DNA of 64,000 nucleotides from positions 1 to 64,000 of IMG/VR virus record IMGVR_UViG_3300020399_000132, one strand, 5' to 3'. The translations under genes were made by a program, and so were the position numbers. The notes under the pieces are model-generated. The model worked only from the letters and a program-made list of their open reading frames with translations. It searched no databases and was not told the origin of the DNA. Every line of letters starts with the position of its first letter. The stretch's first letter is position 1. This stretch comes from a virus (taxonomy: Duplodnaviria; Caudoviricetes). Of this stretch, positions 6,650-43,097 are shown piece by piece.

Positions 6650-7002
6650 TTTGTAGCTGACCGTGCTTCTGTTCCCAAGTGACGGCCACAACTCGGCTAT
6701 ATTCTACGCAGCGATTGCGTAAGAGTATGCAGTATAATCGTCATTGTTTGCGATTAGTTTGATGGACCGTTACGGTGGTACCTCTGCCGGATATCTCTTT
6801 ATCTTACTTCACAATCAATCGAAATCTATTTCAGCCCCATCAACGAAAGTCATATCCAATAAAAAGTGTGGCATAAGTAATACCTAATGCGAGCAATATA
6901 ATTATTGCGAGCCACATTAATTTCTTTTCCATAACTTCCTTTGGTGGAGCTGATCGGAATCGCACCGATGTCTTAACTGTTATCTAGATATGTCAACGAT
7001 AT
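6650..7002 (-). ncRNA. ssrA: circularly permuted (two-piece) tmRNA: acceptor piece ~7002-6942, coding piece 6838-~6650
   Basis: Acceptor piece ends GACATCGGTGCGATTCCGATCAGCTCCACCA (T-arm, A discriminator, CCA). The downstream piece starts GGGGCTGAAATAGATTTCGA, forming the GGGGCUG/CAGCUCC stem with G3-U70. Tag frame 6751-6704 reads ANNDDYTAYSYAIAA*, followed by pseudoknot-forming pairings CCGAGT/ACTTGG and TGGCCGT/ACGGTCA. Outer ends are approximate. Confidence 0.9.
6840..6932 (-). CDS. 30-aa single-pass membrane peptide encoded inside the tmRNA intervening segment
   Basis: AAGGAAG RBS directly after CCA; MEKKLMWLAIIILLALGITYATLFIGYDFR*; stop lies 1 nt before GGGG of the coding piece. Confidence 0.65.
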   Translation of the reverse strand: MEKKLMWLAIIILLALGITYATLFIGYDFR

Positions 7003-7652
7003 CATCTATATTTATTAACCCATGGAACTCTCATAGAAATATCTTTTTTTTCAGATATTCCAGTTGATTGACCCTTATTAAAAAGAACTATGGGATAATC
7101 CAATTCTTCGTAATTAGAAAAATGTGCTGAATAATAAAATTGATCTGGTATACGAATAGGGTCTAATTTTTTCATCCAAAGATATGTATCAAAGCCGCCA
7201 TATTTTTCAATATCTTCAAATTCAAATTCTTCCCAAATTTTTAAACTTGTATTTGGTTTCCATCCTAATATTGAAGAATTATACGGAGTACATAATATAT
7301 TTCTATTTCTTTGATCTTCGAAATTATCCATATGTTCCCTCCAACGGGCCCACGGAGCACATAGATAATCTTGTTTTTCTACCCAATCAAATAAACTATC
7401 TATATTACCTTTTATTACAACATCTAAATCAAATGCTAAAACAACATCTTCTGTAAACTGTTCTATTATTGGTGAATGATATAAAACTTTGGTCCACCAT
7501 TTAGGAAGAATTGGTTCATCAAATACACGAAAATTTATATTATAAGTAGTATTTTTAAATACCATTTTTTCTAAACGTTGTATATCTTTAATAGTATATT
7601 TGTCTCCTACACATATACATGCAACGGCTCTTCGTATGCAATTTATTGCCAT
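7002..7652 (-). CDS. GT-A fold glycosyltransferase-like protein
   Basis: CVGDKY, KWWTKV, FDLDVVI (DxD), YNSSILGW, GGFD. Confidence 0.7.
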   Translation of the reverse strand: MAINCIRRAVACICVGDKYTIKDIQRLEKMVFKNTTYNINFRVFDEPILPKWWTKVLYHSPIIEQFTEDVVLAFDLDVVIKGNIDSLFDWVEKQDYLCAPWARWREHMDNFEDQRNRNILCTPYNSSILGWKPNTSLKIWEEFEFEDIEKYGGFDTYLWMKKLDPIRIPDQFYYSAHFSNYEELDYPIVLFNKGQSTGISEKKDISMRVPWVNKYR

Positions 7653-8335
7653 TGACCTATAACCATAAATCGTTTATAATTACCAAAATCTTTTTCACCT
7701 TTATACCATATATTTTTTATTTGATTTTTTTCAGTTAGCTCTTCAACATCCTTTACACAATTTATATGATCCGGCAAATCAATATAATCATTAGATTGTA
7801 AACAAACAAAAGGATTTCCCTTAAAAGAAAATTGATTTGTAAAATCTTGCATGTGCTCACAAGATGTACAAATAATTAAATGTCTTCTTCTGAGTTCTTT
7901 TCTTTCAAAATAATCATCATGTTGAATTACTTTATATTTTGGATTAAATATATTTTTATATTGAGCCATTACTTTTTGACATGCTTCATCTGGATCATAT
8001 AAATCAATTTGTGTTATTCTTCCTTTGGTGAAACTGTCAACTAATTCTATCAGGGGCCAACCGAACCAAGAACCTACAATTTCTATTAAAAGGGGATAAT
8101 CCCAATCCGGATGACCATGAGGAAATCTAATACTTTCAGAAGAATCTTTTGTATATTTTTTAATATTATCAGGAGAAGTTATTTTTAAATCATTTAAAAT
8201 ATCACACATCCATTTTTTGGATTCATATTGATCATCAGATATAGAATCATCAAAACTTTTTTCATATTCAGAATAATTATTTTTTATAAATCTTTGAACT
8301 TTATAATATGGAGAATTTCTAAAACTTTCTACCAT
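7643..8335 (-). CDS. putative class I SAM-dependent methyltransferase-like protein
   Basis: QYESKKWM, IVGSWFG, IDLYDPD, ICTSCEHM, LQSN, KRFMVIG; paralog of the next gene. Confidence 0.55.
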   Translation of the reverse strand: MVESFRNSPYYKVQRFIKNNYSEYEKSFDDSISDDQYESKKWMCDILNDLKITSPDNIKKYTKDSSESIRFPHGHPDWDYPLLIEIVGSWFGWPLIELVDSFTKGRITQIDLYDPDEACQKVMAQYKNIFNPKYKVIQHDDYFERKELRRRHLIICTSCEHMQDFTNQFSFKGNPFVCLQSNDYIDLPDHINCVKDVEELTEKNQIKNIWYKGEKDFGNYKRFMVIGQWQ

Positions 8336-9189
8336 CTGCCTATAACCATGAATCTCTTATAATTACCAAAATCTTTTTCCCCTTGATACATGATATCTGT
8401 AATTTGATTTTTTTCTGCTAATTCGGAAGAGCTCTCAACACAATTTTCATGTTCTGGTAAATCAATATAATCGTTGCTTTGTAAAACAAAAATCGGTTTA
8501 GGAGTTTCTTTATAATATTCTCTCATTTCACCAATATCAGGCATATGTTCACATGAAGTACATATTATCATATGTCGAATTCTTTTATCATTTCTTTCAA
8601 AATAGTCACCAAATTGATTTAAATTATAAGAAGGTTTAAAATGATACTTATATTTTTGAACTACTTCCTGACAAACTTCATCTGGGTCATATAAATCAAT
8701 TTGTTCAATTTTTTCAACAACTCCTTCTAACATTTCTATCAAAGGCCAACCAAACCAAGATCCAATTATTTCTATTTTAAAAGGATCTTTGCTTCCGAAG
8801 TGTTCAGGTCTTAAAATCTGGCACATCCATTTTTTAGATTCATATTGTCCATCTGTAATAGAATCTAAAAGATCAGAAGCATATTCCGGATAAGATTCAT
8901 CTAAGAATCTTTTAACTTTCATATATGGAGACCATTCCATAGTATTATTATAATTTACTTCATCTTTTTCAAATTGTCCCAAAGTTCTTTCCCATTCACC
9001 TTTAGTTCTTTCCCATTCAATCACATTCCGGCGTTTTTCAGCTGCACGTCTTGCTTCTTCCTTGTCCCATTGTCCTGAAGTTTTTTCCCATAAACCCTCA
9101 CAACGTTGCCATTCAATATTAGCTGCGCGTCTATCTCTTTGGAGAATTTTTAAATCAATTTCCGCTTTTTTAAAATCTTTTATGAACAT
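8329..9189 (-). CDS. putative methyltransferase-like protein with N-terminal GxWE repeat/coiled coil
   Basis: Same motifs as 7643-8335, with near-identical C-terminus GEKDFGNYKRFMVIG. Confidence 0.55.
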   Translation of the reverse strand: MFIKDFKKAEIDLKILQRDRRAANIEWQRCEGLWEKTSGQWDKEEARRAAEKRRNVIEWERTKGEWERTLGQFEKDEVNYNNTMEWSPYMKVKRFLDESYPEYASDLLDSITDGQYESKKWMCQILRPEHFGSKDPFKIEIIGSWFGWPLIEMLEGVVEKIEQIDLYDPDEVCQEVVQKYKYHFKPSYNLNQFGDYFERNDKRIRHMIICTSCEHMPDIGEMREYYKETPKPIFVLQSNDYIDLPEHENCVESSSELAEKNQITDIMYQGEKDFGNYKRFMVIGRW

Positions 9190-9755
9190 CCTACCACTAT
9201 TGAATATTTAACTTTTTGAAAATCATATTCTTCTTCAAATAAAACATCATTCAAATTATTCTGCTCTATTAATTGTTGGGTTGACATCACGGGATTGCAT
9301 GAATATAAACGTTGTCTATTATTCCCGGCTAAAATGAATTTTCCCTTATGTACTTTACCGATAGGATATGTATCTTCACAAAATTTGTGAATAATGGGTC
9401 CCTTAAATTTTATATCATCGAATATAACATCTGTGCAATAAATGTTATCACTTATGAGTTCACAATCTTCACATACATAAGGATCTGAATCATAATATGA
9501 TATATTATAACCTAATTTTTCTATTTTATCAACATGATAATTCATATACCAAGAACAGACGATATTCAAATCATCTTCATCAAAAAATTGAGTAATTAAA
9601 GAATGAATCTTATCATTTAAAACAATATTATATCGATTATTGGCTGAACCTAAATTATGTCGTCTATTTTCCAGTGTACTATACCACAAAGTATCGTATG
9701 AATTTTCCGTTCCATATTTTGAAATAGAAGCAGCGAACTTTTCAAATTCTATCAT
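9180..9755 (-). CDS. hypothetical protein, divergent relative of the methyltransferase-like pair
   Basis: IVCSWY, YDSDP, CED, QLIEQN echo the motifs of the pair; start taken at MIEF. Confidence 0.45.
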   Translation of the reverse strand: MIEFEKFAASISKYGTENSYDTLWYSTLENRRHNLGSANNRYNIVLNDKIHSLITQFFDEDDLNIVCSWYMNYHVDKIEKLGYNISYYDSDPYVCEDCELISDNIYCTDVIFDDIKFKGPIIHKFCEDTYPIGKVHKGKFILAGNNRQRLYSCNPVMSTQQLIEQNNLNDVLFEEEYDFQKVKYSIVVGCS

Positions 9756-10497
9756 AACTGCTCCACATGTCAAGAGCCCAACCTTTTGCTTCATGCAACT
9801 CTACATGAGTTTCATTAGGTTTCGCCCATTTTTTATGAGAAGTATTAAAAAGACATATCTTATAATCAGATCTATATTCTGTTGGATTTAAATCATCTGA
9901 ATATTTACAACCTATATTATAATTATATACATTTCCTGGTAACCAAAAATCTAAATTATTTTTTCTATGTTCCTGATAAAACAAATATTTGTCATATGAG
10001 GGATATGTAAAGAAAGCCTTTTCCTTATTTCTAACTAGCCTCTCATACATATCAAATCCAACATCGTCCTGCCAGGAAACAAAAGAAGAATTAATCGGAG
10101 TCGTCATATATCCATAATTAATTTTTGCTGCTTCATTGTTTCTCCAATAATTCCAAATATAAGTTACCTTATTCTTTTTTCTGTCTACTAGATCGGTTAT
10201 ATTATTTTGAATTAAGATATCTAAATCAAACCAAGCCTTAGGTCCGGAGACATGTTTATATCTATCGAAATAACACATCTTTTCGGATGTAAATATTTGT
10301 GTCCTTGGAAATTCGGAAAAATCATCTGGTATACTTTCTATTTTTATATCTGGATCTATACCAGTTGAATTATCAGTAAGACATGTAAAATTAAAAGGAT
10401 TATTATAATGTTTTTTAAGACTCTTGAAAAGCCTATTAACATATAATCTATTATACTTGGTTCCCCATTTCAAACAATAAAAATTTGTCATTTCCAT
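9742..10497 (-). CDS. GT-A fold glycosyltransferase-like protein
   Basis: CLKWGTKY...YVNRL, FTCLTD, FDLDILI, INSSFVSW; paralog of 7002-7652. Confidence 0.75.
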   Translation of the reverse strand: MEMTNFYCLKWGTKYNRLYVNRLFKSLKKHYNNPFNFTCLTDNSTGIDPDIKIESIPDDFSEFPRTQIFTSEKMCYFDRYKHVSGPKAWFDLDILIQNNITDLVDRKKNKVTYIWNYWRNNEAAKINYGYMTTPINSSFVSWQDDVGFDMYERLVRNKEKAFFTYPSYDKYLFYQEHRKNNLDFWLPGNVYNYNIGCKYSDDLNPTEYRSDYKICLFNTSHKKWAKPNETHVELHEAKGWALDMWSSYDRI

Positions 10498-11528
10498 TGA
10501 TCTCTAAAAGCATCAAAACCTGATCCACACTTCTCAGCACATACTGTAGATTTACCATCTGCACAAGAAGATATATTCCAACTTTTTTGTAATTTTTTAA
10601 AGAATCCACCTTCAATAATATTTCGGAGAGGTGTATGAAGTGCATTAATATCTTTTAAATCATCGAAATATGACCATATCTGATTTTCACCTATTTCTTG
10701 ATAAGCTTTATAAAATCTACCTGCTGTCCAACAACAGGGAGTTACTAAACCTTCAGCACTTATATATATTTCATTATTATCTAATGACTTACATGTAATT
10801 TTTGTTTGATCTAAATACTTTTGAAAGGAACCATGACTCTTAATCAATTTATCATAGCTGTTAACGCTCTTATTCTGATTTTCTGGATTAGTTGGTGGCT
10901 TAATCTCATTCCCCTTAGTGGTTATCTTTTTATCAACTTTCTTACCTTTATAGCTTTGTACCCACCTACCAGTTTTTTTTCTTACAAATTCGAGTCCGAA
11001 TAATTTAGCCATTCTTTCCGCTTCTTCGACTTGATGTTCATTATGTTCAAAAATTAAATATACCCAAATACCCTTACCGCCGGCTTGAGTAAATACATCC
11101 ATGGCATGTTCTACCTTTTTCCAATTTACATTAACTCGATATAAATGATTTGTATCTTCTAAGCCATCTACACTAAAAGTAACCTTTCCTCTAGATCCTA
11201 ATATTAAAACTAATTCTTTCCACCAATCATCATCTCTAGCTCCAGCATTTGTAGTCATATGAAGATACATTTTAGGATTATTAACTCTAAGATATCTAAA
11301 AATGGAAAGCGTATCATTAGACACAAGTGGGTCTCCATGATTACCACACATCAATAAAGAATTTAATTGATGAACAAAATCTATATCAACCATGCTCATG
11401 AAATTATTCAAAGATAATTCAGCATTTTTCATATGTCGATTATTTGTCCTGTCACACATCGGGCATTGTGCTTGACATCTTTGTGTTGGTTCTAAATGAA
11501 TATGTTTTATTTGATCCGAAATATACAT
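10488..11528 (-). CDS. radical SAM enzyme with C-terminal SPASM/Twitch-like domain
   Basis: CQAQCPMC, CGNHGDP, FSVDG; C-terminal C..YISAEG.V.PCC...C..KC. Confidence 0.92.
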   Translation of the reverse strand: MYISDQIKHIHLEPTQRCQAQCPMCDRTNNRHMKNAELSLNNFMSMVDIDFVHQLNSLLMCGNHGDPLVSNDTLSIFRYLRVNNPKMYLHMTTNAGARDDDWWKELVLILGSRGKVTFSVDGLEDTNHLYRVNVNWKKVEHAMDVFTQAGGKGIWVYLIFEHNEHQVEEAERMAKLFGLEFVRKKTGRWVQSYKGKKVDKKITTKGNEIKPPTNPENQNKSVNSYDKLIKSHGSFQKYLDQTKITCKSLDNNEIYISAEGLVTPCCWTAGRFYKAYQEIGENQIWSYFDDLKDINALHTPLRNIIEGGFFKKLQKSWNISSCADGKSTVCAEKCGSGFDAFRDQWK

Positions 11529-12647
11529 TTAATAAAAACTTTCAAACTCTGGCCACTCATTAAGTAAATTAGTTTTATTTCTTTTATCACATAATTTAAG
11601 AAAATTCATTCCTTCTATAAAAATATTATTATCAACCGGAATATTTAATTTTAATAAATTTTTTATATCATCAGAAATATATCTTTGATTTTTGCCTTGA
11701 TATAATTTTTTCACTCCGTTTGGCAAACAATCTATTGTAAAATAACCGGGAACAACTAATAAATTTGATAATGGTGATAATATATTAAAATTCTCTTTTA
11801 AATAAATTTGTATCTCATCTAAGTAACCAACATTTAATGTTTGAACCGTAACTTCAAATCCTATAGGATATGTTGATTGTAATTTTTTAATATTCTCGAT
11901 CTTTTTTTTCCAAACAGTTCCGGTTCTAATATATTCTTCTTTTTTATCAATCCCATCTATAGAAATATTAAAATATAATTTTTTAAATGCTTTTTTATAT
12001 TGAAATAAATGTCCGGGAATTTTTGTGGCGTTAGTAAGAGTAGATATTTTTATTTTTTTTGAAAATCCATGACCGATAAGCCACTCTAAAAAATCATAAT
12101 AACCATCGGTCATTAGCGGTTCGCCACCCGAAATAATTATTCTTGTTACAGAAGGTAAAATCTCTTTTAAATCTTCATAAGTTTTTTTATTAAAAGTATT
12201 TTCATATATTGGCCATTCTCCTTCATTATATTTTTCCTTATGTTGCGACCAGGCGGACGAAGATTGTGGACCGCACATCAAACATTTGAGATTACATAAA
12301 TTTCCAAATTTAATTTTAAAGGTTGGGTTATTGGGAATTAATTTTTTGCCTTGTTTAAATTTTTCTACTTGTCCCTCATAATCATTCTTTAAACTTTCTT
12401 TTCTTCTGGAATTCAATCCGCGATCTTCTCGTTTCCAACAGGATTGACAAATATCTAATCTTTTATTTTCTAAAAAAGCTTTTCTTTTATCGTTGATATA
12501 ATCAGAATTAAAATATTCTAAAATAGAATACTTATCACTGAACATTTTAGATTCACCTAGATTATCACAGCATAATTGATATTCATTAAATGAAGAAACA
12601 GTAAATTGTGTAAACGGGAGAGCGCAGAAATTTTTTAATTTTTCCAT
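11529..12647 (-). CDS. radical SAM enzyme with N-terminal Twitch-like Cys domain
   Basis: N-terminal FCALPF, CC, CQSCW..E; CNLKCLMC, SGGEP, TNAT, SIDG. Confidence 0.92.
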   Translation of the reverse strand: MEKLKNFCALPFTQFTVSSFNEYQLCCDNLGESKMFSDKYSILEYFNSDYINDKRKAFLENKRLDICQSCWKREDRGLNSRRKESLKNDYEGQVEKFKQGKKLIPNNPTFKIKFGNLCNLKCLMCGPQSSSAWSQHKEKYNEGEWPIYENTFNKKTYEDLKEILPSVTRIIISGGEPLMTDGYYDFLEWLIGHGFSKKIKISTLTNATKIPGHLFQYKKAFKKLYFNISIDGIDKKEEYIRTGTVWKKKIENIKKLQSTYPIGFEVTVQTLNVGYLDEIQIYLKENFNILSPLSNLLVVPGYFTIDCLPNGVKKLYQGKNQRYISDDIKNLLKLNIPVDNNIFIEGMNFLKLCDKRNKTNLLNEWPEFESFY

Positions 12648-13663
12648 AGAGGAAATTTATTTTCAGGTTTTCTTTTTGGAATTTTACTATCTGCAGAACT
12701 TACACAATTATCAGTTATGCAAGGCATGAGCTTATCAAATAATTTAAATCCGGTTTCAATATTTCCTAGAGGTACATCTGAGCAAGAATATGACCGCTTA
12801 ATGCTCCCACAAGGCTCGCGTATAATAATACTACGATACCCCGACGAACAGATCCAGCCTTTGAATTCATTAAAATTAAACGCATTAAATCTCTCAGCTT
12901 GATCCACTTCATATATATTTCCTTTTGAATCTACTAAATCTATTTCACGTTCTGTTGGTCTGGAATCATTATGTAAAATATCTAACTGTCCTTGTGTATA
13001 TCCATCTACAACTTTTGTAGCTGTCGGATTTGATTGTGGTTTTAGTGTTGTGTGTATACCACGATCTTTAAAATATAAAACATGTTCTGTTAGTTCCCAA
13101 AATCTTTCCGGAATCATCACCATATTAATTGTTATTCTAATTCCATTATCTTGAAGGAAAACTAATTTATCAGCAAAATCTGCTATCTTATCTTGTGTAT
13201 TTAAAGCTTCAAAATGTGCGGAAGCAGTAATAGAAGCCTTATCAAATTTATTCGCGTATTTAATATATGTTTCAAACCATTTTATTTTACGAGAACAATT
13301 TGAAGTCATATGTATGCGCTGACGATTACAATTATCTTCATCATCTGCAAGGTGTTGTAGTATATCCAAATAGCCGGGATGAAAGGTCGGCTCTCCTCCG
13401 GATAAAGACCAATTGAAAGAATTAAATCCTTGTTTTCTTGCTTGTTTTTTTATGCTATCAATTGTCTTAATACAAAGTTCAGTTGGTCTATGATCTTTTT
13501 TATCTGATCTAGCATACGGCCAACAATAGGAACATTTGTAATTACAAAATCTACCTAACAACCAAGATATTGTAAACGTATCTCGATACAACATTGTTTT
13601 AGTACCGAGAGCCTCAATATCCTTCCATGGTATTTTTGTAAAATCTTCTTCATTGTGTCGCAT
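12635..13663 (-). CDS. radical SAM enzyme with C-terminal Cys-rich domain
   Basis: CNYKCSYC, SGGEPT; FKGWIC...SC...PC...C. Confidence 0.92.
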   Translation of the reverse strand: MRHNEEDFTKIPWKDIEALGTKTMLYRDTFTISWLLGRFCNYKCSYCWPYARSDKKDHRPTELCIKTIDSIKKQARKQGFNSFNWSLSGGEPTFHPGYLDILQHLADDEDNCNRQRIHMTSNCSRKIKWFETYIKYANKFDKASITASAHFEALNTQDKIADFADKLVFLQDNGIRITINMVMIPERFWELTEHVLYFKDRGIHTTLKPQSNPTATKVVDGYTQGQLDILHNDSRPTEREIDLVDSKGNIYEVDQAERFNAFNFNEFKGWICSSGYRSIIIREPCGSIKRSYSCSDVPLGNIETGFKLFDKLMPCITDNCVSSADSKIPKRKPENKFPLWKN

Positions 13664-14561
13664 GAACAAAATCAAATTGTTTAGGTGTATAATTCATTAA
13701 ATTCATTTCATTATCCATATCCCATAAAGGGGCTGTCAATGTGTGAACATTTTTAAATTTTCCTTTAAATCTTGCATACACCTTTGTTATTAATTCTTCA
13801 TACTTTGGCAAATACATAATTTTAATTTTACAAGGTAAATTTACTTCTTCACAAAATCGTTCTAATTTATTAATATATCTATCATTAATAAATTCTGGAT
13901 GTATTGAAAAATTTATCAATGAAAGTTTATTTAATTCTTTTAAATAGGATACTTGCCTGGTGCCGTTAGTTAAAGTCCAAATTGTCGCTTCGGGTACTTT
14001 TTCTTTTAACCATTTTACAAAATCTATATAATGAGGAATAAGAGTTGGTTCTCCTCCTGAAATAGTTATTTTTTTAACATTTAAGGGATTAACTTTGGTC
14101 CAGGCTTCTTGCATTCTCTCCAAGGAAGTCCAGGAGCCTTTATAATCATGGCTACGAGGGTCACAATAAGTGCAGCTGAAATTACACCTACGATCAGTAT
14201 AATAATCAACGGCAACACCAACATCACTCGTAACAGCGTAAATTTTATCATGGGGTTCTAACTTTCCTTTTAGTCTCATATTGTCTATCATTAATAAATG
14301 ATCTTCGGTCCGACCTTTTGGCATCGCTATATCAGTACCACAAAAACAATTTTCATTAGGACATACTATTGTTTTAGGTTCTGTATATTCATCTATTGAA
14401 ACCGGATAAGGTGTCCTACATACCGCAGTGCCTACCTCCCACCATGCAGCATCAATAATATAATTCGTTTGTTTACAATGCCATCCTTTAAAATTAGTTC
14501 TATTTTTAATAGTTTGATCATCACAAGATTTTAAACCATGGTCGGTTAAAACTTTAAGCAT
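13650..14561 (-). CDS. radical SAM enzyme with N-terminal (permuted) Cys-rich domain
   Basis: FKGWHC...C...CPNENCFC at the N-terminus; CNFSCTYC, SGGEPT, TNG. Confidence 0.9.
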   Translation of the reverse strand: MLKVLTDHGLKSCDDQTIKNRTNFKGWHCKQTNYIIDAAWWEVGTAVCRTPYPVSIDEYTEPKTIVCPNENCFCGTDIAMPKGRTEDHLLMIDNMRLKGKLEPHDKIYAVTSDVGVAVDYYTDRRCNFSCTYCDPRSHDYKGSWTSLERMQEAWTKVNPLNVKKITISGGEPTLIPHYIDFVKWLKEKVPEATIWTLTNGTRQVSYLKELNKLSLINFSIHPEFINDRYINKLERFCEEVNLPCKIKIMYLPKYEELITKVYARFKGKFKNVHTLTAPLWDMDNEMNLMNYTPKQFDFVHATQ

Positions 14562-22650: not shown

Positions 22651-22651
22651 A

Positions 22652-23827: not shown

Positions 23828-23830
23828 TTT

Positions 23831-24499: not shown

Positions 24500-24523
24500 A
24501 ATTATTTCCTTATTAAATTTTTA

Positions 24524-28746: not shown

Positions 28747-28747
28747 A

Positions 28748-29605: not shown

Positions 29606-29620
29606 TTAATTCCCTTTTGA

Positions 29621-30700: not shown

Positions 30701-30707
30701 ATATTTT

Positions 30708-34460: not shown

Positions 34461-35149
34461 AAAACATCCAGTGCTCGAGGATTCAATGATATAAAAAACT
34501 GATATACATCATCAGCAAAGGCTAGCCCTTCGTGAGGTTTAATGGAATCATGTAAATAAAACCGGCCTTGTTCTATATGCGATTCGCTTACCATTTTACC
34601 ATCTTTTTCATAACGTATAACCATGCCGTCGGGATTAGTAGTGCCCCATAATTTAATCCATTGTGTTGGATGCCATGTATCTATATGTTTTTTAAAATGG
34701 CCCAAATAATCCCATTTGAGTATGCAGCTTCTATACATATAAGGCGATAATTCACTTAATGCAGATAGGCTAGAAATCTTTAATGCATCGGTTGGCACTT
34801 TAAAATGTTTTTCATTCACAATGCTGTCCATATCAATTTCCCGAGAATTCCATTCTTTCCATTTAATTAGATGATCATCTGTCCATTCTTTATATTTAAA
34901 TTGTGGATATTCTAATAAAAAATTCCATCTATCTAATGGATAACACGCAGGGTCATCTTTTTTAAAAATACCATCTTCATTGATTAAAGGAACCGCGGAT
35001 CTTGGAAATTCTAGGTGAACATCTCCCCACGGTAGAAAATTAAATTTGGATATTTCTTTTACAAATATTTCACTATCTATTTTTAACTTTGTGGGAACTA
35101 AATTTTGGGTATGATATGTGTAATATTCTTTTTCCGTTAAGACTTCCAT
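34454..35149 (-). CDS. putative cupin/2OG-Fe(II) oxygenase (Asp/Asn hydroxylase-like)
   Basis: GHF..HID, GRFY..D...PH. Confidence 0.55.
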   Translation of the reverse strand: MEVLTEKEYYTYHTQNLVPTKLKIDSEIFVKEISKFNFLPWGDVHLEFPRSAVPLINEDGIFKKDDPACYPLDRWNFLLEYPQFKYKEWTDDHLIKWKEWNSREIDMDSIVNEKHFKVPTDALKISSLSALSELSPYMYRSCILKWDYLGHFKKHIDTWHPTQWIKLWGTTNPDGMVIRYEKDGKMVSESHIEQGRFYLHDSIKPHEGLAFADDVYQFFISLNPRALDVLW

Positions 35150-35757
35150 GTATCATTCTTTATCTGAGTTGATCTAGTCAAAAATTCTCCTGTGTCAAGG
35201 TCAAATGTATCACCTGTATTTACACCATCAACAAATAATGTATCTTCGTGTTCCAAATAATATGGTGATTCTTGAAAATTAAAAATAGAATTATTTGACA
35301 TCATTACGGGCGGAATACATTCTGTTGAGCCATATATGTTCCAAATCTTTTCCGCGCCAGTTGCTTTCATTAATGAAATATCTTCATCGGTAACTGGAGC
35401 AGAGCCTGTAGAAAAATTTTTAACAAATTCAAGATTTGGTTTTCTTCTTTTAACAAGAATCCTCCATGTTCCAACTGCTAATGTAAGAACTGTTGGTTTA
35501 ACTTCTTCTACAACATCCCAGAATTTCAAAGGTTCCATTTTAATATTTACTATTTCACAATGTGTAATTTTTGCAGGTATTATACAAAACGCCCAACTTG
35601 CTATAGTCCATGTCGGAAAGGGATTTAGGATAACATCTCGATTATCTATTCCCCATTTTTCAACTAACCAATTTCCTGCTTTATAAAAATCCCCCATGTG
35701 GTGCGTAACTTTTTTTTGTTTTCCTGTGGAGCCGCTACTATACATAGATATTTTCAT
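35137..35757 (-). CDS. minimal ANL-superfamily adenylation (AMP-binding) protein
   Basis: YSSGSTGKQKKV.H P-loop, GSAP, YGSTE, TGD; only 206 aa. Confidence 0.78.
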   Translation of the reverse strand: MKISMYSSGSTGKQKKVTHHMGDFYKAGNWLVEKWGIDNRDVILNPFPTWTIASWAFCIIPAKITHCEIVNIKMEPLKFWDVVEEVKPTVLTLAVGTWRILVKRRKPNLEFVKNFSTGSAPVTDEDISLMKATGAEKIWNIYGSTECIPPVMMSNNSIFNFQESPYYLEHEDTLFVDGVNTGDTFDLDTGEFLTRSTQIKNDTWKS

Positions 35758-37952
35758 AAATTATATCTCCAAATATTTTGTTTTACGTTATTAAATATTT
35801 TGCATTCTACTAAATCCACAATACCTTTTTGGGATAACTTTTTCATAATGTTTGAAAATTTATAACTCCTGACACCGGTTTTAGAATCTACATTATTTGT
35901 TAAATAATATGGACCGACACCACCAGTAATTTCCTTTTGGATGTTTATATGGCTCCATTGATACGAACTTTGTGTAATATCTCTCGATACTTTTTTTACA
36001 TATCCAGGAAGAGAAGCGCCTCTGAATAATAAGCGGTATCCTTTTAATTCTTCCTCCCATTTAACCCCACTCATAGAAATTAAAGTTGAACCTATAAAAG
36101 TTCCCACCCATTTGGCTTCATTATATTTGATACTTTTTAAACTCACATTATTATTGTATCTTGAATATGAACATTCAACTAAAAATTCCAATATTATCAG
36201 TAAATCATCATCATTTAATAATCTATTCCCACATACCATACTACTTCCAAACCGGTTCGGATGCAGCCGACCATAACCCGCACTTAAATTATATATATGT
36301 TTATTAAAATATATGGATATAAAATTTTCAATGTCCTTTAAAACTAAAATAATATTTTGTCGAAGATACTTGATGGAACGTGTATTATCAACCACATGAT
36401 CATAGTCATCATATGTATTATGAATATTATTTTTTATTTGATTATATAATACGCCTATGGTTGTTGTTTGCATATCTTGAAACTTGGAAGTGATGAATAT
36501 CGGATCACTTTCTAAATAATCTTGAAATTTAACAAAAAAATCTTTTAATGTAACTTCATCTTTTAAATAATCATAATATATGTATTTTAATATTCGTTGT
36601 TCTCCAAACCAAAAATTCATAACAATCCATGCGAACATCCAGCCTTTAACAACATCTTCATAAGACATAGATTTCAAAGAAGTAATTATTTCACATTCTT
36701 CCATGTCGACATTAAAAGGGATAATTTTTGTTTTTATTTTAAAACGTTCCCTATAAGATTTATCATTAAGTTCCGCGTTAGGTAAAATCAAACAAGGATA
36801 TACGTTTATTTTTAATTTTTTAACAGGCATTAACGCGGATAACTCATCAACCCACCCATCATACGTAGTACCTGGTAAGGGGTATATTAATTCAACTTCT
36901 CTCTCTGTAGAATCCATCTTATCTGCATTGACAATGCTCATATTTTTTCTTTTAATATTAGATAAAACTTCTGGATTGGTAGATTGTAAAGCTACTCTAG
37001 GAACAGTATTATTATTCTCAACACCCTCTAATAATCGTTGTTGTATTTGTAATGAAGAATTTTTACTTGGTGGTGTTTTTGCATAACCTGAGTGTGCTAT
37101 TTTTTTGGGATAGCCTGTGGCTTCATGATATCCCACTGCCTTATCTATTATATTATAATCTCTTTCTTTAAATATGCCCAAATTACTATTTGTGAACCAA
37201 AGATAATTTATTTTATTACGACTAACCCATTCGAATTCTTTAAATAATCGCGGCTCATCAAATTTTATCATTTTTTGTGCAGTTAAACTACCCCAATCAC
37301 AAAAAGTACATTTAAATGGACAACCTCTATCCATCTCAACGGTAGCGTGAAAATTAACCGAAGGATTTTTTAATATAATATTATTAAAAAGACCCGACAA
37401 ATATGGACTAGGGATTGTATTAATATCTTTAATTCTGGAAGCCGGCTTCGTTTTAAAAATTTTATTATTTTTTCTAAAAATAAGACCCGGTATCTCAGAA
37501 AAATCTTTTTTATTAAAATATTCTAATAAAATTTGTTCAAAGACTTTTTCTCCTTCTCCCACAACACCAATATCTACATAGTCATGCGAATTATACCATT
37601 TGCTATCATTAGAATTAGGCACATGTGGTCCGCCACAAATAATCAAACAATTAGGATACTTTTTTTTTATTTTTTTTAATATATAAAGGTGCTTATTAGA
37701 ATTCCACATATAATTACTAGTAGCAACTATATCTGGTTGTCCCATATTATCAATATAATAATCTAAATTATCTATATTAAACACTAAATCTTTTAATATA
37801 AAATTATCGGATATTATTTTATTTTGTAAACAATAAGACCAAAGAAGGCCGACGGAATATGGTAAAAATGCCGATTTATTACTTGACATTTCAGTGCCAG
37901 TTGAAGAGTCTATTAAAGGAGCCGTTAATTGTAATAGATATATATTTTTCAT
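35754..37952 (-). CDS. cobalamin-dependent radical SAM enzyme with an extra C-terminal domain
   Basis: YMWN, ICGGPH, GEGE, PSPYL.G, RGCPFKCTFCDWG; C-terminal extension absent from the paralog at 31708. Confidence 0.9.
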   Translation of the reverse strand: MKNIYLLQLTAPLIDSSTGTEMSSNKSAFLPYSVGLLWSYCLQNKIISDNFILKDLVFNIDNLDYYIDNMGQPDIVATSNYMWNSNKHLYILKKIKKKYPNCLIICGGPHVPNSNDSKWYNSHDYVDIGVVGEGEKVFEQILLEYFNKKDFSEIPGLIFRKNNKIFKTKPASRIKDINTIPSPYLSGLFNNIILKNPSVNFHATVEMDRGCPFKCTFCDWGSLTAQKMIKFDEPRLFKEFEWVSRNKINYLWFTNSNLGIFKERDYNIIDKAVGYHEATGYPKKIAHSGYAKTPPSKNSSLQIQQRLLEGVENNNTVPRVALQSTNPEVLSNIKRKNMSIVNADKMDSTEREVELIYPLPGTTYDGWVDELSALMPVKKLKINVYPCLILPNAELNDKSYRERFKIKTKIIPFNVDMEECEIITSLKSMSYEDVVKGWMFAWIVMNFWFGEQRILKYIYYDYLKDEVTLKDFFVKFQDYLESDPIFITSKFQDMQTTTIGVLYNQIKNNIHNTYDDYDHVVDNTRSIKYLRQNIILVLKDIENFISIYFNKHIYNLSAGYGRLHPNRFGSSMVCGNRLLNDDDLLIILEFLVECSYSRYNNNVSLKSIKYNEAKWVGTFIGSTLISMSGVKWEEELKGYRLLFRGASLPGYVKKVSRDITQSSYQWSHINIQKEITGGVGPYYLTNNVDSKTGVRSYKFSNIMKKLSQKGIVDLVECKIFNNVKQNIWRYNL

Positions 37953-38962
37953 GCCGCGGCATCATTTAAAAATTTATAAGAATAGTTTTCCCTAAAAAAA
38001 TTAATTTGATATTTGGGTTTATTCAATGTATGATATTTTTTTAAAGATCTCCAATATTCAGTATGATCATTTTTAGAAGAAGTGTAAAACAATTCTAAAA
38101 AATCATATACATGCCGACACAATCTAACATATGAACGATTAAATATTTCCTCTTTATTTTTTTTATATTTTAATTTTTCAATAGTTTCTATCGCCCATGT
38201 TATTAGAAAAAGTCCTGTAGCTTCAAGAGGTTCTGCAAATCCACAACTTAATCCCACAGATACGGTATTCCCCAACCACGGAGTTAAACAATATCTATTA
38301 TTAAAGGGAATGGCGTGAATGTCTTCGGCTTTAACATTACCTACATTTTTATTTTTAAATTCTTCAATGGCATCATTTACACTTATAAAATTATTATTAA
38401 AAACATACCCATTACCACTCCTTGATCTTAAATCTACATTCCACATCCACCCATAATCCATAGCGAAAGTGTTTGTTATAGATTGACAATTAGAATCACC
38501 AGGCGCGAAGAGGGCCATATTATTAGACAGAGTTTTATAAGAACCAAATTGTTTATTTTTAGAAAAATCACTATTGAATCCAGTACAATCTATTACTAGA
38601 TCAGGATTATCCACTTTACATAATCTAGGTCGCGTTATTTCTTCTAGAAGAATAATCATTTTTAACGCATCTAAATGATAAGCATGCATATTATTGGGAA
38701 ACGGGTGTATCCAATCAGTTTTATGCCAACCATGATGTTTAATACCATATTTAATTACGCCGTCACACTTATTAATTACATCATCTTCAGATATTCCACA
38801 ATAATCAAAGAATTTAACTAGTCCAGGTAATGTACTTTCTCCAACACCTATAGGTTTGGAATTTTTAGGAAGTTTTATTTCAACTTTATTAGTTTGGGAT
38901 AAATATGCGGCAGCTAACCAACCGGCGCTTCCACCTCCTAAAATTATTATGTTCATAGACAA
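37949..38962 (-). CDS. flavin-dependent (tryptophan halogenase-like) enzyme, shortened
   Basis: GGGSAGW, IGVGEST, KYGI, DCTGF, GWMW, F.EPLEATG. Confidence 0.85.
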   Translation of the reverse strand: MSMNIIILGGGSAGWLAAAYLSQTNKVEIKLPKNSKPIGVGESTLPGLVKFFDYCGISEDDVINKCDGVIKYGIKHHGWHKTDWIHPFPNNMHAYHLDALKMIILLEEITRPRLCKVDNPDLVIDCTGFNSDFSKNKQFGSYKTLSNNMALFAPGDSNCQSITNTFAMDYGWMWNVDLRSRSGNGYVFNNNFISVNDAIEEFKNKNVGNVKAEDIHAIPFNNRYCLTPWLGNTVSVGLSCGFAEPLEATGLFLITWAIETIEKLKYKKNKEEIFNRSYVRLCRHVYDFLELFYTSSKNDHTEYWRSLKKYHTLNKPKYQINFFRENYSYKFLNDAAA

Positions 38963-39594
38963 AGCTTCGTCCTTCTATAAGTTATATCCCATGACTTAAA
39001 TTCTTGCAATGATTCTATCTTATAACCAAAACTATTTAAATATACTTCAATATCTTCTTCACTATGTCCATACTGTTTTAATTGATGAGGATATGCTTGA
39101 TATACTATTGTAGGTAAATATTTTTCAATAGTTCTTTCTAATCCTAACAATGCTTCATATTCCATACCTTTTATATGCATTTGTATAAAAGTAATATTTT
39201 TAAAATCGAAATCATCAATAACTTTTACTATTACTTCTTCGCCTTCTTCTTCATTTAATTGATAACCTCCATAATTACCTTCTTGATCAGGCTTAGCAAA
39301 TTTTTTGCTTTGTTTAGAAGCTGCGGCAAATGGAAATATTTTTACATCGGGTACATTTTGTCTTAAACATTCACAATTACTTTCTATAGGTTCCCAAGCA
39401 TACACTTCATCAAACTTTTTAGTTAATTGCCTACTCCAAATACCAACATGAGCTCCTACATCAATAGCATTACCCTTAGGTACTGATTTAAGTATTTCTC
39501 TATGAATACTACCATCCATAGGAAAACCGCTTGAATGCATATATTCAAAAAATGAATCATCATCTTGTATGTAAAAGTTGCCTATCTTCTTCAT
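38953..39594 (-). CDS. FkbM-family methyltransferase
   Basis: AIDVGAHVGIW, AWEP; degenerate motif QMHIKGME; ATGA coupling at 39594. Confidence 0.78.
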   Translation of the reverse strand: MKKIGNFYIQDDDSFFEYMHSSGFPMDGSIHREILKSVPKGNAIDVGAHVGIWSRQLTKKFDEVYAWEPIESNCECLRQNVPDVKIFPFAAASKQSKKFAKPDQEGNYGGYQLNEEEGEEVIVKVIDDFDFKNITFIQMHIKGMEYEALLGLERTIEKYLPTIVYQAYPHQLKQYGHSEEDIEVYLNSFGYKIESLQEFKSWDITYRRTKLCL

Positions 39595-39761
39595 TTCCCT
39601 CCGCGCTTCTTCCACTGCTCAGGATACTTTTCTCGTAATATCTCATCTATAGAATCTTCAAATGCTTTGCTGTTTCTGCCTGGTTTATAAGTACAAGGAA
39701 ATTTAAAATCTTTATTCCCAAAGTTTTTTTTCCAAAAGTTAACTATCTTGTTTATTATCAT
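39591..39761 (-). CDS. 56-aa basic small protein (not in the ORF track)
   Basis: MIINKIVNFWKKNFGNKDFKFPCTYKPGRNSKAFEDSIDEILREKYPEQWKKRGGK*; ATGA overlaps at both ends. Confidence 0.7.
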   Translation of the reverse strand: MIINKIVNFWKKNFGNKDFKFPCTYKPGRNSKAFEDSIDEILREKYPEQWKKRGGK

Positions 39762-41182
39762 ACATGTACCATAGTCAAAAAATCATCATGTGTAATATTG
39801 TTTGAATAATCTATATCGTAATCAGGCTCTGTCCAATCTACATATTTCATATTTTTTGTTTTGTTTAAGTACGGTTTTTCGTAACCAATTAACATTGATG
39901 CAAGGTTAAAATGATTAAAAATGGTTTCTCCTTTTTTACAATATCTCTTTTTAGAAAGAAACATATTCAAATAATCATTATATTCTTCAATGTTTTGTTG
40001 ATTATTCCAATATCTCCAAAATTCGGAATCAGTTCTGTCACTCAATGTATAATGATATTTTACAAATTCTTTTGAATGTTTGAGAAATCTTTTAAGATGC
40101 CTAGATAAAACTTTAGATTCTTTTGAAGTCCATTTCTTTTTCTTTTTATATTGGTCTACAAAATTAATTACCGTCACACAGGTTAACATCAATGAAGTCG
40201 CTTCCATAGGTTCTATAAAACTCTGTGCCAGCCCATTTGATATGCAATTATCGACCGCAACAGTTTTCATAGATCCATTTTCATATTTTATGCAATCAAA
40301 TACAAAATCTATTTGGCCATTCCAAGCATCCTTTAAAATTTTTCTTGCCTCATCATCAGTAGTAAAATAATCTGAATAGATAAATCCCCCCGCAGTTCTA
40401 TTACGTGTGTTCACATCCCACAACCATCCATCAGGTTTTGCAGTCAATTCCGTATAAATTTTATGTTGTTTAGGAACACCTCTGACTTTTCCAGCAACAA
40501 ATTTATTACAAATCATGTCATCATAACTTTCATAATCAGACAATTTTGAAATCAAAACTCTATTAAAACCAGAGCAATCAAAAAATACATCACCATATAC
40601 GGTTTGACCATTTTCTAAACGTAAAAATTCTATACCATTTTCATTTATGCAAACATCTTTTACACCACTGGGAATTAATGTGTAATCTTTGAGATGTTTC
40701 TGTAATGTCGCTCCAAATTTATCTGCTAATATTTGATATGCATGTCCTGGTCGATCACTAATTGTTTTTGGATAAGGAGTTAAATTTTTATCAAGCAAAT
40801 ATTGTTGAGGACCGTGAAATAAATTAAAATATTTTGTGGACATATCTAAATTATTAATACAATACTCAACAGAATCTACTTTTGTTTCTGAAAATTCGAA
40901 AGCATCTTCAAATAAATGATACCACACGCTACCTGAATAATTCCAATCATTAAATTTAATTCCATATTTAAATGTAGCATCACTATCTTTTAACCAAACA
41001 TTTTCTGAAATATTTGCATTTTCGGCTATCAAACGCAATGTCGGTGTTACTGTTTCGCCAACACCAATCGGGTTATTTTGCTCTTCATGAATAACTGTCA
41101 ACTCACAATCAATAGAATTTTTTATATAACTAGCAGTTGTCCAACCTGCGGAACCACCACCGACTACTACGATTCTAACCAT
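39758..41182 (-). CDS. flavin-dependent tryptophan halogenase-like enzyme
   Basis: GGGSAGW, IGVGET, ATFKYGI (catalytic Lys position), DCSGF, GWLW, FIEPMEATS, FW. Confidence 0.9.
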   Translation of the reverse strand: MVRIVVVGGGSAGWTTASYIKNSIDCELTVIHEEQNNPIGVGETVTPTLRLIAENANISENVWLKDSDATFKYGIKFNDWNYSGSVWYHLFEDAFEFSETKVDSVEYCINNLDMSTKYFNLFHGPQQYLLDKNLTPYPKTISDRPGHAYQILADKFGATLQKHLKDYTLIPSGVKDVCINENGIEFLRLENGQTVYGDVFFDCSGFNRVLISKLSDYESYDDMICNKFVAGKVRGVPKQHKIYTELTAKPDGWLWDVNTRNRTAGGFIYSDYFTTDDEARKILKDAWNGQIDFVFDCIKYENGSMKTVAVDNCISNGLAQSFIEPMEATSLMLTCVTVINFVDQYKKKKKWTSKESKVLSRHLKRFLKHSKEFVKYHYTLSDRTDSEFWRYWNNQQNIEEYNDYLNMFLSKKRYCKKGETIFNHFNLASMLIGYEKPYLNKTKNMKYVDWTEPDYDIDYSNNITHDDFLTMVHV

Positions 41183-42312
41183 TGTGTTAAATATGGATGT
41201 AAATAATTTTGAAATTGTTGATTTCGGGAAAAATCAAATAATGTAATTTCTTTAAGCATTTTCTTTTTATTTTCCACATTTCTTTTAAAATATGAATTGC
41301 GTATTTGATTAAACTTTTTCGAATCTATCCGAGGAACTTTTTCTAACAATTGTCTACTTAGATGAATCGGACTTATACCTCGATTATCTGGATATACTTC
41401 ACAATATGAAACATAAACTTTTTTAGGTAAGGTGCAACACCATTGCCAATGATTAAGTAAATCTAAAATATTTAAAGCAGAAACAACAACTGCAATATTA
41501 ACTCTTCCTAAATTTGTAGAAGTTCTTAAAAATAATCTTATAGATTTATCTAGGTCATCAAATGATTGAGGATATCTTATATATTCGTAACCTTCTTCTA
41601 CCGAATCTATACTTAATTTAGGATGTTGCTTTTTAAATTTATTTAATTTTTCAATTAATTGATCGTTAAATAATGTCCCATTAGTATGATATGCGAGAAT
41701 GGTATTTTTAGCCCAACCTTCACTAATATATTTATCAAGGAGTTTTAAAACTTGTGCATCAAAAAAAGGTTCCCCTCCGCTGAATCTAAGTTCCTTTAAG
41801 GGATTATTTAAAAGCCAATTATATTGTTTTGAATTAGAAGTTTTGGGAATTTCAATTCGCCCTCTAAATTTACCAGATGTAGACTCTTCAACTTCATGAA
41901 GTAAACCTTCTCTGCTAAAGAATTCATAATCTAACATTAATCTATGACTCGTTTGGGGATCACACATTCTACATGCCAGATTGCATTTATTAGAAAAAAT
42001 GAAATCAACTACATCTAATTTTCCTCTAGGAATAGTATCATCATTATGGATTCTGAAAGATTCTATACCTCTTTCTTCCATATCCCAACAAGTTTTACAA
42101 AATGGATGTTTTTTATTATTAGATAAAGCTTCACGTAATTCTTTAAATTGTTTTGAATTAAAAGCTTCTTCGGGGGTAAGATCTGTCTCTTCCCATTCCA
42201 TTGGATCTTCCCAATCAGGGCGCGACATATTACAACAAGGATGAAACCATTTAATTTTGTCTCCATCCCAATCTCTAATTGTAATTTGTTTAAAGGGATA
42301 ACTACATAACAT
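41167..42312 (-). CDS. radical SAM enzyme with N-terminal Twitch-like domain
   Basis: CSYPF, PCC, CKTCW; CNLACRMC, SGGEP, TNG; closest paralog is 22652-23827. Confidence 0.92.
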   Translation of the reverse strand: MLCSYPFKQITIRDWDGDKIKWFHPCCNMSRPDWEDPMEWEETDLTPEEAFNSKQFKELREALSNNKKHPFCKTCWDMEERGIESFRIHNDDTIPRGKLDVVDFIFSNKCNLACRMCDPQTSHRLMLDYEFFSREGLLHEVEESTSGKFRGRIEIPKTSNSKQYNWLLNNPLKELRFSGGEPFFDAQVLKLLDKYISEGWAKNTILAYHTNGTLFNDQLIEKLNKFKKQHPKLSIDSVEEGYEYIRYPQSFDDLDKSIRLFLRTSTNLGRVNIAVVVSALNILDLLNHWQWCCTLPKKVYVSYCEVYPDNRGISPIHLSRQLLEKVPRIDSKKFNQIRNSYFKRNVENKKKMLKEITLFDFSRNQQFQNYLHPYLTQWLES

Positions 42313-43097
42313 TATTCTACATTAAAATCATCACTCGCGAAGCCGGCTTCCCAACCAAACTTTTTAATTTCAGTAGGATCAGCACAAGTCTCTTCGCTCT
42401 CGCCAGTTACATTTTTAAAATCAATTGAATCGATATCAAAATCTTTCGGTGAATGTTCTTTAGCAAAATCATAAACAGATTTTGGTGTTCCATATCCAAT
42501 ATCAAAAACCTTAGGAAATTTTTTCCATACAGGAGTTTCAGTCATTAGTAAATATATAGCTTTTACACAATCTTTTACATATAACCAATCTCTCGTATGA
42601 GTTGTTAAATAATTAATATTTCCTTCTTGTAATTGTCTATAAAACATATCAGGTCGCGATTGAGGTCCCCATACTGTGAAGAATCTCATTCCTATAGCAT
42701 TAGTTGGTGCCATTGCTTCACAGGCCCCTTTAGTCATTGCGTAAGGACTTTTCATATCTGAAACAGAAGAACTCGATGCATATAAGATTTTAGAATTTTT
42801 ATAAGTATCAAAAATACGTTTTGTTCCCTTAATATTTACTTCATAATATTCTTTTAAATATTTTGGATCCCAACTATTACGAACACCGGCTCTTGCGGCT
42901 AAATGAACTACAACTTTTGCATCGGTATGGGGTAGGGGGTCTGTAGTGATGTCACAATCAGAGTGAGGAACTTCGCGATCTTCCCAACCTAATCCGGAAC
43001 AATTATCAATACCATAAACATCATGGCCCTCTTCAGATAAAAAATTATATAAATGATGGCCAATAAATCCTTTGACACCTGTTATTAATATTTTCAT
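42312..43097 (-). CDS. NAD-dependent nucleotide-sugar epimerase/dehydratase
   Basis: ITGVKGFIG, HLAA.AGVR.S, YASSS, YAMTK, RFFTV.GP. Confidence 0.9.
   Translation of the reverse strand: MKILITGVKGFIGHHLYNFLSEEGHDVYGIDNCSGLGWEDREVPHSDCDITTDPLPHTDAKVVVHLAARAGVRNSWDPKYLKEYYEVNIKGTKRIFDTYKNSKILYASSSSVSDMKSPYAMTKGACEAMAPTNAIGMRFFTVWGPQSRPDMFYRQLQEGNINYLTTHTRDWLYVKDCVKAIYLLMTETPVWKKFPKVFDIGYGTPKSVYDFAKEHSPKDFDIDSIDFKNVTGESEETCADPTEIKKFGWEAGFASDDFNVE

Follow-up and report, generated by a model that had tools for sequence, protein, structure and literature searches.

Radical S-adenosylmethionine (SAM) enzymes catalyze some of the hardest reactions in biology, and the SPASM and twitch enzymes that have been characterized are mostly peptide maturases. 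Sugars or cyclitols are also acted upon, by the twitch enzyme BtrN and by the radical SAM enzymes BlsE, AprD4, GenK, and DesII. Regarding phages, 12 radical SAM genes were described previously in an environmental T4-like genome (Nishimura 2017, PMC5332604), and radical SAM cassettes were found to vary between close relatives among the pelagimyophages (Zaragoza-Solas 2020, PMC7029224); neither study analyzed these genes or proposed a function for them. The present study concerns a gene island at 7002-43106 in the viral record IMGVR_UViG_3300020399_000132 of IMG/VR, a 177,419-bp genome that is complete by CheckV and the first 64 kb of which is the stretch of DNA analyzed here (the window). Sixteen of the 38 island genes encode radical SAM enzymes, and the island is a large composite example of a recurrent viral array on a plastic phage island. 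Its most likely role is the tailoring of sugars or glycans, a reading that we favor tentatively and to which we give somewhat less than an even chance.

The 38 open reading frames (ORFs) of the island lie in one direction, on the minus strand that carries all genes in the window, and mostly overlap or abut; neighboring ORFs overlap by up to 185 nt or are separated by up to 24 nt, apart from a single gap of 142 nt. This organization is close to the approximately 39 co-directional, overlapping genes of an earlier note that was made from the letters of the window. The CxxxCxxC motif is present in 16 island ORFs versus none of the 35 flanking ORFs, and each of the 16 has independent support from Pfam (Radical_SAM, SPASM, or B12-binding) or NCBIfam, in agreement with the 16 radical SAM enzymes, two of them B12-dependent, that the note had counted. 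Decay and chimeric assembly, which the note had raised as doubts, do not apply. The ratio of nonsynonymous to synonymous substitution rates (dN/dS) in comparisons with three relatives is 0.03-0.3 for nearly all island genes, a range shared by the truncated-looking halogenase, the aldo-keto reductase (AKR), and the ANL fragment; the island genes are intact and under purifying selection. Four assemblies from other metagenomes, of which two are near-complete genomes, match the region 25000-44000 collinearly along its full extent or most of it, with a nucleotide identity of 88-98%, and the GC content is 29-35% over 1-58 kb, island included. Collinearity in four independent assemblies and this uniform composition together exclude chimerism. 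The analysis establishes which enzyme families and folds are present in the island, how its genes are ordered, and that the island is conserved, under purifying selection, and modular. Its genes and the sugar genes of the same gene run are as follows, with individual genes referred to below by their lower coordinate.

42312-43106, minus strand: nucleotide-sugar epimerase/dehydratase-like short-chain dehydrogenase/reductase (SDR), first gene of the island (264 aa; Pfam Epimerase 1.8e-24, GDP_Man_Dehyd)
41167-42312, minus strand: N-terminal-twitch (N-twitch) radical SAM enzyme (NF033640, 203.8 bits; CNLACRMC motif)
39758-41182, minus strand: flavin-dependent halogenase (PF04820, 250 bits)
38953-39615, minus strand: FkbM methyltransferase (PF05050)
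37949-38962, minus strand: shortened halogenase paralogue (PF04820, 210 bits)
35754-37952, minus strand: B12-dependent radical SAM methylase-like enzyme (PF02310 and CxxxCxxC)
35137-35757, minus strand: AMP-binding fragment of 206 aa (Pfam)
34454-35149, minus strand: cupin/2-oxoglutarate (2OG)-like protein, so called from an HxD...H pattern seen by eye
33534-34460, minus strand: PhyH oxygenase (Pfam)
31708-33537, minus strand: B12-dependent radical SAM methylase-like enzyme (PF02310 and CxxxCxxC)
28748-31724, minus strand: PhyH oxygenase, TauD oxygenase, and FkbM methyltransferase (Pfam)
27679-28746, minus strand: N-twitch radical SAM enzyme below the NF033640 cut-off (133.5 bits)
26933-27682, minus strand: short AKR of 249 aa (Pfam)
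25827-26969, minus strand: N-twitch radical SAM enzyme (NF033640, 203.9 bits)
25360-25842, minus strand: small protein without a family match
24846-25370, minus strand: small, weakly 2OG-like protein (2OG-FeII_Oxy, E 0.025)
24524-25030, minus strand: small protein without a family match
23831-24499, minus strand: nitroreductase (Pfam)
10488-23827, minus strand: core radical SAM array, with three types of radical SAM enzyme and a Fer4_12 outlier, a QueC-type ATPase, and a DenV-like insert
20414-21226, minus strand, within the core array: QueC-type PP-loop ATPase (SGGADSS PP-loop, QueC C-terminal motif)
16965-17390, minus strand, within the core array: DenV-like pyrimidine-dimer DNA glycosylase (Pfam)
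9742-10497, minus strand: GT8-like glycosyltransferase (predicted GT-A fold)
9180-9794, minus strand: methyltransferase-like protein, so called from a weak BLAST match to 8329
8329-9189, minus strand: methyltransferase-like protein (class I methyltransferase fold)
7643-8335, minus strand: methyltransferase-like protein (class I methyltransferase fold)
7002-7652, minus strand: second GT8-like gene, a paralogue of 9742-10497
46771-50753, minus strand, beyond the island: SIS isomerase, GHMP kinase, cytidylyltransferase-like protein, GT1 glycosyltransferase, and pyruvyl-transferase-like protein (Pfam; the glycosyltransferase also PHROG)

Most of the enzymes that had been named from the letters were recovered. 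Pfam supports both flavin halogenases, both FkbM methyltransferases, the nitroreductase, the short AKR, and the SDR epimerase, the adenylation enzyme is represented by the 206-aa fragment with its AMP-binding match, and the QueC-like assignment of 20414 is supported by its PP-loop, its C-terminal motif, and homologues that carry PF06508 (QueC). Among the five 2OG-Fe(II) oxygenases proposed, the TauD protein and the two PhyH proteins stand, whereas 24846 is a weak match and 34454 shows a pattern by eye; similarly, of two or three further methyltransferases, 8329 and 7643 are recognized by fold and 9180 by its BLAST match alone. As the earlier note had stated, no nonribosomal peptide synthetase (NRPS), polyketide synthase (PKS), YcaO, LanB/C, transporter, or regulator family was detected in any Pfam scan. 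The nucleosidase was not recovered: a search of the genome for the PNP_UDP family gave no match, and the only glycosylase-type match is the DenV-like gene.

The array is widespread among viruses. An IMG/VR scan with 21223 yielded at least 192 viral contigs, and more than 3,200 metagenomic clusters in the protein database, none of them named, matched the family at E<=1e-10. The 45 related records each contained at least four Pfam radical SAM matches, with a median of approximately 12 and a maximum of 24 in a 76-kb fragment. Co-occurrence and synteny in IMG/VR, to which the note had looked for confirmation, showed that the cassette recurs with orthologues for each paralogue: those of the core array were found in 17-79 of 80 loci (17-66 of 80 for 10488, 19279, 12635, 15565, 17387, and 14546). 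Since the radical SAM paralogues are mutually 21-36% identical, the duplications are old, and the possession by each of its own orthologues across distant phages argues for distinct conserved roles rather than redundant copies.

The 16 radical SAM enzymes comprise seven N-twitch proteins above the cut-off of NF033640 and the sub-threshold 27679, three SPASM proteins, two proteins of a third type, the outlier 13650, and the two B12-dependent enzymes. The curated cut-off of NF033640 (N_Twi_rSAM) is 170 bits as a full-length hidden Markov model score; besides 25827 and 41167, it is exceeded by the five N-twitch members of the core array, namely, 21223 (406.5 bits), 11529 (275.9), 14546 (217.9), 15565 (208.6), and 22652 (172.9). 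The twitch signature CX13GX4C...CxxC is invariant in the N-terminal domain of the eight paralogues (C15, C33, C97, and C100, followed by CNxxCxxC), and the Pfam SPASM matches of these proteins are located at residues 5-100. The SPASM domain is C-terminal in 10488, 17387, and 18303. The third type, 12635 and 19279, has the pattern W.LGR.C..C.YC / GGEPT.HP and Cys-rich C-termini, while 13650 has a Cys-rich N-terminus, a Fer4_12 match, and weak similarity to QueE, MoaA, and viperin. In a comparison of the N-twitch profile with the PDB, the best match was the enzyme TigE (4e-12), which acts in the pathway of a peptide that is synthesized ribosomally and modified post-translationally (RiPP), followed by viperins; GDGT-MAS, BlsE, and MoaA were also matched. 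These matches do not single out one substrate, as TigE acts on a peptide, viperins on nucleotides, GDGT-MAS on a lipid, and BlsE on a sugar nucleoside. Searches of PDB sequences with 12635 and 17387 gave no informative match.

The match to TigE raises the question of whether the island performs a RiPP-like modification of a phage peptide, a virion protein, or a host protein, which we regard as decidedly unlikely. The B12 enzymes show matches, albeit weaker ones, to RiPP C-methyltransferases, genes for Asp/Asn beta-hydroxylases occur near arrays, and immediately upstream of the gene for the SPASM-type enzyme, 41 of the 80 loci, apparently of the jumbo lineage, have a 74-aa ORF (e.g., L031:4525-4749 (+)). 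However, this 74-aa protein, which is always found between a methyltransferase-like gene and the SPASM radical SAM gene, is conserved over its full length without a variable core (77% mean column identity; invariant HH, W, and Y) and is missing from the present genome. It had no Pfam or PDB match, and its carriers, with 21223 orthologues that are approximately 52-56% identical, apparently belong to the jumbo lineage. Furthermore, gaps of 142 nt or less leave no room for a precursor gene in the island, the twitch domain fills the N-terminal place that is usual for a leader-binding domain, and neither a RiPP recognition element (RRE)/PqqD domain on any island ORF (Pfam E<=0.01) nor a protease or exporter was detected in the scans.

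Comparisons among relatives showed that the island is a modular, hyperplastic region, the core cassette of which is largely viral; members of the 21223 and 8329 families in the ESM Atlas are viral in 97-100% of cases. In two relatives (L015 and L028), which lack the approximately 17 kb that separate 41167 from 23827 here, the SDR and 41167 connect directly to 24524, 34454, and 21223 (in L015, also to 19279); G005 has mainly the core array in common with this genome, and the halogenase/FkbM segment is different in G003. In relatives, the 24524 and 34454 families occur together beside the 21223 orthologue, and the island sits in differing genome regions in different phages. The complete 381,886-bp jumbo phage IMGVR_UViG_3300043399_000877 (G017) has 14 radical SAM genes and a 21223 orthologue that is 54% identical in a genome with no gp32 homologue at E<=0.001, which suggests a transfer of the core cassette between phage lineages. 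The DenV-like gene in the middle of the array is confined to this genome among the relatives compared and, having no homologue in the array-region loci of G001, G003, and G005, looks like a recent insertion.

The single modification line envisaged in the earlier note is not consistent with relatives that carry subsets of the island. Taken further, this modularity would mean that there is no common substrate and that the island is an accumulation zone in which independent auxiliary units, i.e., the radical SAM core, the halogenase/FkbM pair, the B12 methylases with oxygenases, and the glycosyltransferases with methyltransferases, have piled up, each with its own host or phage target. The subsets and variants in L015, L028, G005, and G003, the DenV-like gene seen here alone, the change of region between phages, and the gain of a radical SAM cassette between close pelagimyophages (Zaragoza-Solas et al., PMC7029224) are all in line with this explanation, which we nevertheless consider rather unlikely because the tight translational coupling across module borders suggests co-expression and the recurrence of the same enzyme classes together in unrelated phage lineages suggests a functional linkage.

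Sugar genes within and next to the island and beside arrays elsewhere are the reason that the stepwise editing of a sugar is favored. The island opens with a nucleotide-sugar SDR, whose nearest PDB sequences are dTDP-glucose 4,6-dehydratase, UDP-GlcA 4-epimerases, and MoeE5, includes the FkbM methyltransferases, and closes with two GT8-like and three methyltransferase-like genes. The AlphaFold2 (AF2) model of 9742-10497, with a predicted local distance difference test (pLDDT) score of 91.5, has a GT-A fold of the GT8/GT6-like type and matched LARGE1, alpha-3GalT, LgtC, and glycogenin in Foldseek (E 2e-9 to 1e-6), and D91 and D93 of the DxD motif are invariant; Pfam glycosyltransferase models gave no match to this protein even at E<=5. 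This fold and motif, together with the paralogy of 7002, bear out the two GT-A glycosyltransferases proposed from the letters. The AF2 model of 8329 (pLDDT 74.6) has a class I methyltransferase fold, and the PDB matches of this methyltransferase-like fold with the lowest root-mean-square deviation were the TDP-sugar C3-methyltransferases KijD1, TcaB9, and MtmC; a search of PDB sequences with the family profile gave nothing meaningful. The genes at 46771-50753 belong to the same uninterrupted gene run as the island and represent a candidate set for sugar activation and transfer. The claim that the island has no scaffold is doubtful because these sugar-activation genes, GT1, and the pyruvyl transferase share its gene run, and GT8-like and SDR genes lie inside it. 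Outside this genome, a UDP-glucose/GDP-mannose dehydrogenase and a weak DegT match are located directly upstream of the array on a 335-kb contig, a GT25 and a carbamoyltransferase adjoin the 9742-family gene on a 176-kb T4-like contig, and a carbamoyltransferase is present in array loci; within this genome but away from the island, a DegT-like gene is 4.5 kb from another B12 radical SAM gene.

Based on these findings, we infer that the substrates of the radical SAM enzymes are sugars and that the modules work together. The QueC-type ATPase and the class I methyltransferase-like protein travel with the radical SAM core as a cassette, which in this lineage has been joined by the GT8-like proteins, methyltransferases, SDR, AKR, 2OG oxygenases, B12 C-methylases, and halogenases. 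An activated sugar, or a sugar already on its acceptor, would be edited stepwise by radical chemistry, with oxidation, epimerization, deoxygenation, and C-methylation as candidate steps, and would then be methylated and transferred. The outcome may be an unusual glycan that decorates the host envelope or the virion, either of which is a presumed acceptor, and the variability of the glycan among related phages could be the outcome of an arms race.

Several points weigh against the tailoring of sugars. The jumbo-lineage arrays have no adjoining GT8-like family, which was absent from the fragments examined, and 6 of the 45 related records carry this family; with one exception, these apparently belong to the T4-like lineage, as judged from 21223 orthologues that are at least 78% identical (gp32 was checked in G001). 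The recurrent partners of radical SAM genes in the jumbo lineage are mostly without a recognizable sugar function, and some arrays adjoin tail-fiber-like genes or genes for ferredoxin or transporters. Trp-type halogenases, the nitroreductase, the ANL fragment, and TokK/CysS-like methylases usually belong to pathways for small molecules or peptides rather than for glycans, the N-twitch profile has its best PDB sequence match in TigE and not in a sugar enzyme, with viperins next, and literature searches found no NF033640 member with a defined reaction or substrate.

The B12-dependent enzymes matched PF02310 at 33.8 and 32.2 bits (cut-off 32.1) and carry the motif CPF[RK]C[ST]FC. The closest PDB sequences to 31708-33537 are TokK (2e-66) and CysS (2.5e-47), with RiPP C-methyltransferases matching the B12 enzymes more weakly; 35754-37952 is 36% identical to 31708-33537, the enzyme that the PDB comparison covered. 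Both are below the 700-bit cut-off of NF033712 (KedN5 family), at 234 and 203 bits. The halogenases matched Thal, PrnA, and RebH (approximately 1e-42 to 1e-36) and VirX1 (8e-31) in the PDB. They retain a GGGSAG flavin adenine dinucleotide (FAD) motif of the GxGxxG type, whereas WxWxIP is replaced by GW[LM]W[DN]V (GWLWDV and GWMWNV), and the second copy is approximately 130 residues shorter. By eye, they contain Lys/Glu motifs that resemble the catalytic ones. VirX1, which originates from a cyanophage, has no known natural substrate.

A gene set near the other end of the window introduces a further candidate substrate. Located at 2214-5807 on the minus strand, it is likely a 7-deazaguanine gene set and includes a dCTP-deaminase-like protein; its other members are as follows.

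2684-3295, minus strand: protein that starts with MCS, N-terminal-nucleophile (Ntn) amidotransferase-like by eye
3288-4046, minus strand: QueC
4256-5128, minus strand: 290-aa protein that could be a divergent DpdA
5130-5807, minus strand: FolE

The place of the island in the replication and nucleotide-metabolism module, at approximately 1.2 kb from the FolE, QueC, and glutamine-amidotransferase-like genes at 2684-5807, suggests that the island may instead act on a nucleotide or DNA base, e.g., a 7-deazaguanine derivative that shields the DNA from host restriction. The same adjacency, with a formyltransferase as well, is found in one relative (L108), a second QueC-family ATPase is located inside the array, as such ATPases are in other arrays, and all three near-complete related genomes that were searched (G001, G002, and G017) contain FolE. 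QueD and QueE were not evident near the small set, and 13650 has a weak QueE-, MoaA-, and viperin-like character. On the other hand, FolE occurs on 9 of 42 fragments, which is about chance level, and the genome contains no ThyA/gp42-type hydroxymethylase and no match to the tRNA-guanine transglycosylase (TGT)/DpdA model PF01702, which a divergent phage DpdA could escape. Moreover, the island yielded no enzyme that binds DNA or exchanges bases, and the GT8-like, FkbM, and SDR enzymes would be left unexplained. We regard a nucleotide or DNA-base target as unlikely.

Sugar and nucleoside chemistry may also meet in a broader proposal, which is possible but on the doubtful side, namely, that the core cassette is a virus-specific pathway without a cellular counterpart in which at least 12 radical enzymes generate a hypermodified sugar or nucleoside on DNA (e.g., 7-deazaguanine), the virion, or the host surface. 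If true, the product would be a phage-made molecule of a new class, and the reactions of the N-terminal-twitch family would be new radical chemistry on sugars or nucleosides. The relatives found for the dominant family are almost all viral. A tblastn search of 50,697 phage records with 21223 gave four weak matches (Ralstonia RsoM2USA, Vibrio K566 and K567, and a marine single-amplified-genome virus), and the annotation of the region in Vibrio K566 goes no further than hypothetical or radical SAM proteins. A plasmid collection gave no match, and a scan of genome contigs with 11529 returned only the 1,922-bp contig JABSQC010000110.1, which was binned in a metagenome-assembled genome (MAG) of Mycoplasmataceae. 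The protein on this contig is 90% identical to 11529 and is almost certainly encoded by mis-binned phage DNA; in 300 genomes of the same phylum, NF033640 had no other match.

Since 16 radical SAM enzymes are maintained under purifying selection here and up to 24 are present in relatives, the phage must gain something important from them. The earlier note had presented the island as an undescribed system, and no characterized pathway matches it; however, such cassettes were mentioned in the two studies cited above (PMC5332604, PMC7029224) and recur in at least 192 contigs. If the product were identified, a large block of viral dark matter would acquire a function, new radical chemistry on sugars or nucleosides would probably come to light, and an explanation would be at hand for a major region of variability in abundant marine phages, the hosts of which may include alphaproteobacteria such as SAR11. 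The halogenases and TokK-like methylases gain a defined genetic context from the island.

The carrier is a marine T4-like phage according to its gene content. The island is located in the replication and nucleotide-metabolism module, with an endonuclease, a transfer-messenger RNA (tmRNA), and the gp59 loader and gp32 on one side versus a PD-(D/E)XK protein and a gp47-like exonuclease on the other, where primase, ThyX, and ribonucleotide reductase are also encoded. Among the matches listed, gp32 is 52-55% identical to cyanomyophage gp32; psbA was searched for in the genome and not found, and a megablast search of the island flank against cultured phages gave no match. A permuted two-piece tmRNA at 6658-7043 on the minus strand (Rfam RF04321, 109 bits; alpha_tmRNA RF01849, 62 bits), which was not called by ARAGORN, adjoins the last gene of the island or overlaps it slightly. 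Its alpha type makes an alphaproteobacterial host plausible and is the hint on which we base this suggestion. A Hydrolase_2 cell-wall hydrolase and a DUF6433 protein lie at 44001-44618 (minus strand), between the island and the gp47-like exonuclease. Outside the window, the same genome encodes a further N-twitch radical SAM enzyme (226 bits; G000:C1 105076-106362) and a B12-type radical SAM enzyme 4.5 kb from a DegT-like aminotransferase fragment (G000:C1 127252-132221), which points to a second tailoring cluster.

Regarding expression, the sole sizeable gap in the island, 39594-39757, may contain an internal promoter, and the probable start of the adjacent FkbM gene is an ATG near 39594 that follows a GGAGG site, rather than the listed GTG at 39615. 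Sigma-70-like promoters and terminators were no more common than in shuffled sequence, the counts of TATAAATA on the coding strand were close to a rough expectation from base composition, and an NSSS-type N-terminal tag was absent from the coding frames.

In comparison with known systems, RiPP maturase systems (TigE/TigB, SuiB, CteB, and PqqE) have in common with the island a radical SAM core, an auxiliary cluster domain, and several tailoring enzymes per operon, whereas the island has no RRE, precursor gene, protease, or exporter. The class B methylases TokK, CysS, and KedN5 share an N-terminal B12-binding domain and radical SAM core with the two B12 enzymes, but the aminoglycoside, carbapenem, or NRPS scaffold genes of those systems are not found here. 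Phage 7-deazaguanine DNA modification systems likewise contain FolE and QueC, which in this genome (phrog_2197 and phrog_1550) are outside the island at 3288-5807. The host recognition clusters of pelagimyophages and cyanomyophages are, similar to the island, plastic regions of marine T4-like phages with GT8 genes, lipopolysaccharide-type genes, and radical SAM cassettes (PMC7029224); they lie between VrlC and gp14 with tail fibers, whereas the island is in the replication module, and the 9742-family relative on the 176-kb T4-like contig does lie in a region of the host-recognition-cluster type. The island halogenases share PF04820 and the FAD motif with VirX1 and the bacterial tryptophan halogenases and differ from them in the replaced WxWxIP motif; VirX1 is also viral. 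The auxiliary four-Cys cluster domain is common to the island enzymes and to BtrN and BlsE, in which it is C-terminal rather than N-terminal; similarity to BtrN was not detected by sequence, whereas BlsE was among the PDB matches. There is a likeness to the catalogued family NF033640 itself, as seven island proteins match the full model at 173-406 bits and retain both the CxxxCxxC motif and the N-terminal four-Cys twitch.

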